The notes below the pieces were generated by a model. That model saw only the letters and a list, made by a program, of their open reading frames with translations, had not been told where the DNA came from and did no database searches. From the IMG/VR virus record IMGVR_UViG_2778261088_000003: a DNA stretch of 44,065 bases. One strand, given 5' to 3'. The translations under genes and the position numbers were made by a program. This DNA comes from a virus (lineage: Duplodnaviria > Heunggongvirae > Uroviricota > Caudoviricetes). Positions 18,230 to 18,818 of the stretch are shown in pieces (positions within the stretch are counted from its first letter, which is position 1; the number at the start of each line of letters is the position of its first letter).

Positions 18230-18652
18230 ATGTCATTCTTTTCTACGTTAAAAACAGCTTTGTCTTTGAAGGAGAAACTTGCTGCTACTGGTGTTCTTGT
18301 TCTGATTTGCACACTTGTTGGTGCTGGGTTTGCATGGGAACGTCATCAGCTAAAGCAAGCCATCGAGAAAATTGGCAGTCTTGATCAGGCTGTTAAGGAA
18401 CGTGATAAGTCAATAATGGATCTTAACCAGACCATTGAGACGATGAACAAAGCAGAGCAACATTTTCACAGCCAGGAAGTGAAAAATGAATCAGAACAAG
18501 CCAAATATGCTGACAGGCAAATGGAACGAAAAGCTGAAGTTCAGAAACAACTGGTTGCGGCGGGTAATGTTCGCCAGCGCATTCCTGCTGACACTCAGCG
18601 GTTGCTCCGGGAGTCGATCAGCGAATTTAACGCCGACGCCGACAAAGGTTAA
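18230..18652 (+). CDS. i-spanin-like (Rz-like) type II membrane protein
   Basis: ATG 18230 after AGGAGG; N-terminal TM helix LAATGVLVLICTLVGAGFAW, charged coiled-coil ectodomain, AAGNVRQRIP near C-terminus as in Rz proteins. Confidence 0.55.
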   Translation: MSFFSTLKTALSLKEKLAATGVLVLICTLVGAGFAWERHQLKQAIEKIGSLDQAVKERDKSIMDLNQTIETMNKAEQHFHSQEVKNESEQAKYADRQMERKAEVQKQLVAAGNVRQRIPADTQRLLRESISEFNADADKG

Positions 18653-18818
18653 CCACCCTGCCCCCAAAAGTGCATTTATGTGCAGAATGCCAGAGTTTAG
18701 CAGTGAATATTTTGATGATCTGCCAGCGTATATCCTCGATACAGAAACGATGCTGATGGGGATTAACAGGAAGAATCGCAACGTTAATGATTACAACCGC
18801 GCTATCAGCGGTAACTAA
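18567..18818 (+). CDS. o-spanin-like (Rz1-like) outer-membrane lipoprotein, overlapped frame
   Basis: Starts inside the preceding gene in another frame and runs past its stop; lipobox LTLSGC, proline-rich mature part (TPTPTKVNHPAPK). Upstream alternative starts possible. Confidence 0.55.
   Translation: MFASAFLLTLSGCSGSRSANLTPTPTKVNHPAPKSAFMCRMPEFSSEYFDDLPAYILDTETMLMGINRKNRNVNDYNRAISGN

Follow-up and report, generated by a model that had tools for sequence, protein, structure and literature searches.

Phage P1 is listed in SpaninDB (supplementary tables of Kongari 2018; NC_005856) with a spanin pair of the architecture 'ovl'. The i-spanin gp064 (PpfA) is catalogued as a protein of 140 aa with a 104-aa periplasmic domain that contains no periplasmic cysteine, and the o-spanin gp063 (Mlp) as a protein of 110 aa with a mature part of 71 aa and one periplasmic cysteine. 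For Mlp, the catalogue remarks 'Too long signal sequence', gives a LipoP cleavage at position 39 and records no Prosite match. Bednarek 2022 likewise names both genes as the (predicted) spanin genes of P1 and describes their operon as unlinked; this publication, in the text of which the i- and o-labels are swapped, credits the identification to Summer 2007. The product name of mlp in RefSeq is 'Rz-like spanin', and in several GenBank records of P1-like genomes the pair is annotated as Rz/Rz1. In a genome-wide CRISPRi screen, both genes were non-essential for plaque formation, with EOP values of 1.3 and 1.2 for ppfA and of 0.24 and 0.19 for mlp.

The locus described here is situated in a stretch of viral DNA of 44,065 nucleotides (IMG/VR record IMGVR_UViG_2778261088_000003), which is referred to as the window. 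The original prediction had assigned it to an overlapped Rz/Rz1-like spanin pair, and this assignment as a predicted pair is supported by SpaninDB, by Bednarek 2022, by the RefSeq annotation, by PHROG matches and by an alignment with LysC of phage P2. Accordingly, the locus very likely represents ppfA/mlp of a P1-like phage-plasmid, encoding a predicted two-component spanin of the overlapped architecture. The pair as such is already known, being the catalogued spanin candidate of P1, and beyond correct annotation its meaning is therefore small.

Genomic setting of ppfA and mlp

Judged by its sequence, the window belongs to a P1-like phage-plasmid (Punavirus) and is in reverse orientation relative to the P1 records. 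In a megablast comparison, positions 17000–19600 match phage P1, P7 and other punaviruses over the full length with an identity of 95.8–97.8%, on the strand opposite to that of the P1 records. The gene order of the matching stretch in the P1 RefSeq entry is dmt, hrdC, uhr (minus strand here), upfC, upfB, ppfA, mlp, upfA, oriR, repA, parA and parB. The whole window corresponds to approximately 37–82 kb of P1. Apart from a few short patches that have no match in P1, it is collinear with the phage genome; its left end maps to pmgQ/ppp and its right end to the constant part of the tail-fibre gene S. Two segments absent from P1 (28596–29288 and 32963–34004) encode a Hok-like toxin and uncharacterised proteins. 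Among complete sequences, the window is most closely related to IncY P1-like plasmids of E. coli and Salmonella, which are about 95 kb in size and about 98.6% identical. From the high identity, the collinearity with P1 and the nature of these plasmids it can be concluded that ppfA and mlp are carried by a phage-plasmid of the P1 type. ppfA (gp064) and mlp (gp063) of P1 and P7 are the orthologues of the two genes; the operon upfC-upfB-ppfA-mlp-upfA and its site beside oriR/repA are identical here, and the proteins display only a few substitutions, for example Thr28 of PpfA, which is replaced by Ala in most relatives.

For comparative analyses, 88 related loci representing 45 distinct protein pairs were collected from IMG/VR, GTDB genomes and GenBank, with PpfA identities down to 59–64%. 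A first search of viral contigs returned 80 near-identical loci, and a second search, seeded with the divergent group, added the loci L089–L093. The search of genome contigs with PpfA yielded 3 loci, all of them close relatives. The PpfA family is small: an exhaustive HMMER search with a PpfA profile among 1.84 billion proteins found 35 representatives. Several of them are long proteins matched through coiled-coil noise, and no additional context was gained from any. Distant full-length relatives of PpfA show the same build and, apart from two weak matches to other families, match spanin PHROGs only.

The operon starts with upfC (17109..17393, plus strand), which encodes a PAAR-like tail spike tip protein (phrog_281, 2e-30; Pfam PAAR, 26.4 bits at a cut-off of 27). 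HHpred and cryo-EM have identified UpfC as the tail spike tip on the gp5 spike and as the equivalent of T4 gp5.4. Since UpfC is a phage tail spike tip, the interpretation of the PAAR-like gene as a type VI secretion component was rejected. The second gene, upfB (17403..18190, plus strand; phrog_1559, 7.6e-138, match from residue 20), encodes a protein that forms, according to the cryo-EM study, a 'tripod' anchored to UpfC on the spike tip. The start of upfB is likely located at 17403 and not at the longest-ORF start 17345; the relatives of the protein begin with MLEK. With the start at 17403, the gaps between the operon genes amount to 9, 39 and 11 nt in addition to the overlap of ppfA and mlp, and upfC-upfB-ppfA-mlp-upfA look like one transcription unit. 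The last gene, upfA (18830..19222, plus strand; phrog_1453, 2.4e-61), is missing from the most divergent relative (L093), where mlp is directly followed by repA. A terminator-like hairpin with a T run (19236..19266, plus strand) marks the end of the operon on the border of oriR, the P1 counterpart of which maps to about 19243–19484. It had been stated before that the operon begins with the PAAR-like gene and lies next to the plasmid replicon, and this is indeed the arrangement observed, with oriR, repA and parA following upfA.

Upstream of upfC, the intergenic region between the divergent genes harbors the leftward promoter Pdmt and, as mapped from the P1 annotation, a C1 repressor operator (Odmt/Op68 of P1) at 17011..17027 on the minus strand (ATTGCTCTAATAAATAT). 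In order to scan the window for late promoters, the pattern AAGTGACTT-N4-TANNNT was derived from six annotated P1 examples. The scan recovers sites at annotated late promoters of P1, such as 34007 (LPsit) and 42267 (LPs). On the plus strand between 5108 and 23164 no Lpa-type late promoter of this pattern was found, and hence none upstream of upfC. Upstream of the operon only weak sigma-70-like sites are present, at 17048–17076 and 17070–17098. In the P1 annotation two predicted promoters are available, and only sigma-70 promoters are predicted for ppfA. It is conceivable, albeit unlikely, that the upfC operon including the predicted spanins is transcribed with the spike-tip genes from an Lpa-independent promoter, either ahead of the holin and the endolysin or independently of them, and possibly already in the lysogen. 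Expression of this kind would imply that the envelope is pre-loaded with spanin complexes or that the pair has a second role besides lysis, and the 16-residue cytoplasmic tail of PpfA could then provide a regulatory handle.

A holin and an endolysin are usual, though not obligatory, neighbors of spanin genes. Here they are not found next to the pair, and in P1 they are located 32–43 kb away. P1 keeps its lysis genes in three unlinked loci, namely lyz-lydD-lydE (20.0–20.9 kb), lydC-lydA-lydB (30.4–31.5 kb) and ppfA/mlp (63.4–63.9 kb), which explains why the pair lies apart from the other lysis genes. The earlier observation that neither a holin nor an endolysin is visible in the window proved correct: tblastn searches of the window with P1 Lyz and LydA–E, lambda S and R as well as P2 Y, K and LysA gave nothing better than E 0.05, the two segments absent from P1 contain no hidden holin or endolysin, and the stretch of P1 with which the window is collinear is devoid of other lysis genes. 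The only lysis protein with any tblastn match in the window is P2 LysC. Since the window ends before the other two lysis loci of P1, both genes are missing from it, and the closest complete plasmid contains a lysozyme gene at a distance of about 50 kb, within the half lying beyond the window. The isolation of ppfA and mlp is thus a documented peculiarity of P1 that is strengthened by the window boundary. This illustrates that a lysis gene without a nearby holin or endolysin can simply reflect the dispersed lysis genes of P1 and the limits of the window.

PpfA, Mlp and their overlapping reading frames

The i-spanin candidate is encoded by ppfA (18230..18652, plus strand), which is preceded by the Shine-Dalgarno sequence AGGAGG (18219..18224, plus strand), a site identical to the one given in SpaninDB. 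The protein of 140 aa is 99.3% identical to PpfA of P1, listed in SpaninDB as OIS gp064. It is composed of a strongly conserved 16-residue cytoplasmic tail (residues 1–16), a transmembrane domain (TMD; about residues 17–36, nt 18278–18337) and a predicted helical periplasmic domain (residues 37–140). The single hydrophobic segment comprises residues 17–35 with a mean Kyte-Doolittle value of 2.22, and the net charge of its flanks, +2 on the N-terminal and 0 on the C-terminal side, fits an N-in/C-out orientation. PpfA can thus be described, as proposed originally, as a type II inner-membrane protein with the single N-terminal TMD characteristic of the two-component spanin class. Outside of the TMD no cysteine is found.

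An AlphaFold2 monomer model of PpfA, calculated with 15 homologues, displays a continuous helix from residue 13 to 110, a break at residues 111–119 and a further helix from residue 120 to 139, with a mean pLDDT of 72. In this model the periplasmic domain is mainly alpha-helical, as in two-component spanins, and the predicted helical character of PpfA can be regarded as solid. Of the coiled-coil ectodomain that had been proposed, the helical part is therefore retained in the model. The coiled coil itself is plausible for the membrane-proximal half only, since heptad periodicity is restricted to residues 38–65, where hydrophobic residues occupy 7 of 8 a/d positions; this value is also attained by 7% of shuffles, which makes the signal statistically weak.

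The o-spanin candidate is encoded by mlp (18486..18818, plus strand) in the +1 frame. The predicted prolipoprotein of 110 aa corresponds to OOS gp063 of P1 in SpaninDB; it is 98.2% identical to Mlp of P1, and over the Mlp proteins of P1 and RCS47 the identity amounts to 98–100%. The leader is unusually long (39 aa) and consists of a basic n-region of 27 residues and an uncharged h-region, followed by L-S-G-C40 of the LTLSGC motif (lipobox LSGC, 18594–18605, plus strand; Cys40 at 18603–18605). The mature part of 71 aa carries a Ser at position +2, five prolines within its first 32 residues and one further cysteine, Cys66. With a lipobox cysteine and a residue other than Asp at position +2, Mlp displays a lipoprotein signal, with the caveat of the 39-aa leader. 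The out-of-frame lipoprotein postulated on account of the motif LTLSGC is thus recovered as an ORF in the +1 frame. Moreover, Cys66, which is invariant in five divergent lineages, provides the pair with the periplasmic cysteine of which at least one is expected.

Family assignments point in the same direction for both proteins. PpfA matches phrog_89 (1.5e-24), Mlp matches phrog_30284 (2e-77) and phrog_456 (4e-5), and all three are named 'Rz-like spanin'; among the significant PHROG matches of PpfA and Mlp that bear a functional name, all are designated either 'Rz-like spanin' or 'lipoprotein'. The membership of PpfA may partly be self-recognition, as P1 proteins are probably contained in the PHROG. 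The lysis proteins of P2 fall into the same families, LysB being a strong member of phrog_89 and LysC a strong member of phrog_456 with a cross-match to phrog_30284. A BLASTP comparison of Mlp with P2 LysC revealed 37% identity over 68 aa (E 5e-8), and the alignment spans the signal peptide, the proline tract (TPxP) and a Cys-x-Met-Pro motif. On the basis of this alignment and of the reciprocal cross-matches in PHROGs, Mlp is considered homologous to the o-spanin LysC of P2.

The best NCBIfam matches of the two proteins are, independently of each other, LysB for PpfA and P2_Rz1 for Mlp, with both scores far below the cut-offs: PpfA reaches 18.1 bits (E 0.0024) in the LysB family (TIGR03495, cut-off 92.75 bits), and Mlp 14.3 bits in the P2 LysC/Rz1-like family (NF038368, cut-off 27 bits). 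In Pfam neither PpfA nor Mlp gave a match above threshold, including the Rz and Rz1 families. A BLASTP comparison of PpfA with lambda Rz detected no similarity (E 0.26). Since PpfA and LysB align with a BLASTP E of 60 and with a probability of 41% over 48 columns in a profile-profile comparison (hhalign), an i-spanin homology beyond the shared PHROG is not claimed.

The doubly coding overlap of the two genes comprises 167 nt (18486..18652, plus strand), corresponding to residues 86–140 of PpfA and residues 1–55 of Mlp. With mlp extending 166 nt beyond the ppfA stop codon, the arrangement belongs to the 'overlapped' class. ATG 18486 represents the first start in the open mlp frame and is preceded at a distance of 8 nt by the Shine-Dalgarno sequence AGGA (18474..18477, plus strand); start and ribosomal site are the same as those used in SpaninDB. 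All lineages examined have an equivalent ATG, which in the divergent lineages is displaced by one codon. The original prediction had given the overlap as 86 nt, which presupposes a start at ATG 18567. However, this codon (Met28) is not conserved and is replaced by Val, Ala, Phe or Leu in relatives, so that the overlap has to be corrected to 167 nt.

The reality of the lipoprotein frame had been made dependent on its conservation in related genomes, and conservation is what was found. The +1 frame is open in 88 of 88 related loci (45 distinct protein pairs), whereas control frames contain 1–7 stops over comparable lengths. In the part of mlp outside the overlap, comparison with five divergent relatives gave pN/pS values of 0.14–0.25 in the mlp frame versus 1.3–2.0 in the two control frames. 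Within the overlap, constraint is stronger on the ppfA frame (pN/pS 0.24–0.39), and the n-region of mlp varies freely without ever acquiring a stop; in the divergent relatives neither frame is interrupted. The nucleotide identity to these relatives is 0.75–0.80 in the overlap compared to 0.59–0.62 in the part that codes for PpfA only. The lipobox cysteine is invariant and the lipobox occurs as LSGC, LSAC, LNGC, LNAC or LVAC, of which LNGC has already been recorded as a deviant form among o-spanins. Invariant blocks of the mature protein are NLTPTP, AFMCRMPEF, which includes Cys66, EYFDDLPAYI and INRKNRN. The +1 frame of mlp is not a product of chance, and its non-overlapping part is under strong purifying selection.

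Proposed mechanism and alternative readings

By analogy with Rz/Rz1 of lambda, PpfA would insert into the inner membrane via its single N-terminal TMD in an N-in/C-out orientation, and about 104 residues would reach into the periplasm as a helical rod. Mlp would be exported, lipidated at Cys40 and cleaved by signal peptidase II, and the Ser at position +2 suggests that it would be sorted to the outer membrane by the Lol system. The mature protein, which is rich in proline in its proximal part and conserved in its distal part (AFMCRMPEF, EYFDDLPAYI and INRKNRN), could bind to the distal end of PpfA, with Cys66 probably forming the disulfide of an Mlp homodimer. The resulting complexes would cross the periplasm through the meshwork of the peptidoglycan and stay inactive until the wall is degraded by the SAR-endolysin Lyz, set free by the holin LydA. 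Once the wall is removed, they might collapse and bring about the fusion or disruption of both membranes, thereby completing lysis.

The same two proteins could in principle serve the envelope in a non-lytic manner, for instance in superinfection exclusion or in receptor masking like T5 Llp and phi80 Cor, and be expressed by the prophage instead of at the end of the lytic cycle. Such a role would suit an operon located beside the plasmid replicon and a C1 operator, which has no Lpa late promoter and for the ppfA gene of which the P1 annotation predicts only sigma-70 promoters, and it would agree with the plaque formation of the knockdowns. However, Mlp is homologous to the P2 o-spanin LysC, and its obligate partnership with a helical membrane protein of type II, encoded in a +1 overlap, persists in every lineage. 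In addition, the co-transcribed genes upfC and upfB encode virion parts, and the unit must therefore be expressed during lytic growth. Taken together, a non-lytic role appears quite unlikely.

Two further readings concern the question whether the pair, or its second frame, has a function at all. The dispensability in the CRISPRi screen, the atypically long signal peptide of Mlp and the lack of a periplasmic cysteine in PpfA would be compatible with a spanin relic that is dispensable or non-functional, the outer membrane being breached otherwise or extra holin-like proteins compensating for the loss. Spanin defects in lambda are visible only under particular conditions, for example with added divalent cations and without shear, and non-essentiality in the screen is therefore weak counter-evidence. 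Against a relic stand the purifying selection on the non-overlapping part of mlp, the frame kept intact in every one of the 88 loci down to PpfA identities of 59–64%, and the invariance of the lipobox cysteine and Cys66; moreover, 169 of 526 catalogued i-spanins likewise lack cysteine. A relic is thus very improbable. The mlp frame could also be suspected to be an open frame that overlaps a real gene merely by chance, as gene callers usually miss or shorten it: only 28 protein clusters exist, many of them fragments of 60–65 aa, and in the JK004 annotation only a 44-aa tail of mlp is called. This suspicion is already refuted and its residual probability negligible, given pN/pS values of 0.14–0.25 as opposed to values above 1.3 in both other frames, the complete lack of stops where the other frames have 1–7, the conserved start and lipobox, and the homology to LysC. 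The gap in the annotations rather shows that gene callers still routinely overlook overlapped o-spanin genes or call them too short.

Comparison with the spanins of P2, lambda and T4

Compared with the spanins of other phages, the predicted two-component spanin PpfA/Mlp resembles LysB/LysC of P2 in its overlapped architecture and dimensions. The P2 proteins comprise 141 and 96 aa with a gene overlap of 146 nt, compared to 140 and 110 aa with an overlap of 167 nt here. The P2 pair is part of a classic cassette consisting of the holin gene Y, the endolysin gene K, lysA, lysB and lysC, whereas the P1 pair is unlinked. Moreover, LysB carries periplasmic cysteines that are absent from PpfA, and the signal peptide of LysC is of normal, short length in contrast to the long leader of Mlp.

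With Rz/Rz1 of lambda, the pair shares a functional design in which a type II helical inner-membrane protein is combined with a lipoprotein of the outer membrane that is read from the +1 frame. In both systems the mature o-spanin contains one cysteine (Cys29 in lambda Rz1, Cys27 in mature Mlp). However, the lambda Rz1 gene is wholly embedded in Rz, while mlp reaches 166 nt beyond ppfA, and the lambda proteins belong to different PHROGs (phrog_13 and phrog_3198). Rz carries Cys99 and Cys152, in contrast to PpfA without any periplasmic cysteine, and has no counterpart of the 16-residue cytoplasmic tail. Mature Rz1 is also considerably shorter than mature Mlp (40 versus 71 aa).

The genes of the T4 pair PseT.3/PseT.2 are separated and not overlapped, and PseT.2 needs two cysteines, whereas Mlp possesses a single one. 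Nevertheless, the distribution of features over the two subunits is alike: an i-spanin without periplasmic cysteine is combined with a larger, cysteine-bearing o-spanin that has a predicted C-terminal helix. This combination of a cysteine-free i-spanin with a cysteine-bearing o-spanin, which is also that of PpfA and Mlp, is common among the catalogued spanins.

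Segments differing from P1 and the tRNA cluster

The 0.7-kb segment 28596–29288, which has no counterpart in the P1 record OP279344, bears an ORF for a 51-residue Hok/Mok-type toxin (28670–28825, minus strand), matching phrog_251 (‘MokW-like host killing’, 4.9e-32), and adjoining it is a gene for a 108-residue membrane protein (29007–29333; phrog_3772, no function named). In the sim (superimmunity) region, the segment 32963–34004 likewise differs from P1; it encodes two proteins of 224 and 158 residues (phrog_3933 and phrog_3429, no function named), both of which appear, as judged by eye, to carry N-terminal signal peptides. 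Within the bifunctional methyltransferase gene dmt (13496–15760), a 0.4-kb patch (14609–15034) gave no alignment with P1 OP279344 under the blastn thresholds applied, suggesting that the middle segment is mosaic. Three tRNA genes on the minus strand (11157–11232 and 12673–12826), with the anticodons CAT (Met), TGT (Thr) and GTT (Asn), correspond to the cluster of tRNA genes in the annotation of P1 OP279344.

Promoter region and gene content of the upfC operon

Although UpfC and UpfB belong to the baseplate and spike of the virion, no Lpa-type late promoter (AAGTGACTT-N4-TANNNT) was found upstream of the upfC operon (16950–17110), where the C1 operator Op68 is accompanied only by weak sigma-70-like sites. 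The longest upfB ORF, also adopted in the P1 annotation, begins 58 nt upstream of ATG 17403 (17345–17403). ATG 17403 is likely the true start; it is preceded by GGAG, and MLEKDYQ stands at the N-terminus of the family profile as well as of UpfB in the divergent relatives. At the other end of the operon, upfA is absent from the most divergent relative, L093 (3086–3392), in which the repA region directly follows mlp. Since L093 lacks upfA, the spanin pair need not be accompanied by this gene.

Annotation and conservation of the predicted spanin pair

The gene of the predicted o-spanin is usually missed or shortened by annotation. In Cronobacter phage JK004 (locus L003, 4260–4592) the annotated o-spanin is only a 44-residue C-terminal fragment. 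In a collection of 5.8 billion proteins, Mlp is represented by no more than 28 clusters, and many of these are pieces of 60–65 residues beginning past the ppfA stop codon. In the divergent P1-like lineages L089–L092 (around 2760–3090) the lipobox reads LNGC or LNAC instead of LSGC, and an internal methionine would yield a canonical 17-residue signal peptide (MRQVLLASAFLLTLNGC); the equivalent codon of the window is TTG 18555.

Across five divergent lineages, the cytoplasmic N-terminal tail of PpfA (residues 1–16, 18230–18277; MSxFSTLK..LSLKEKL) is 75% invariant, in comparison with only 25% for the transmembrane domain. In this respect PpfA differs from lambda Rz, which is almost devoid of a cytoplasmic N-terminal tail.
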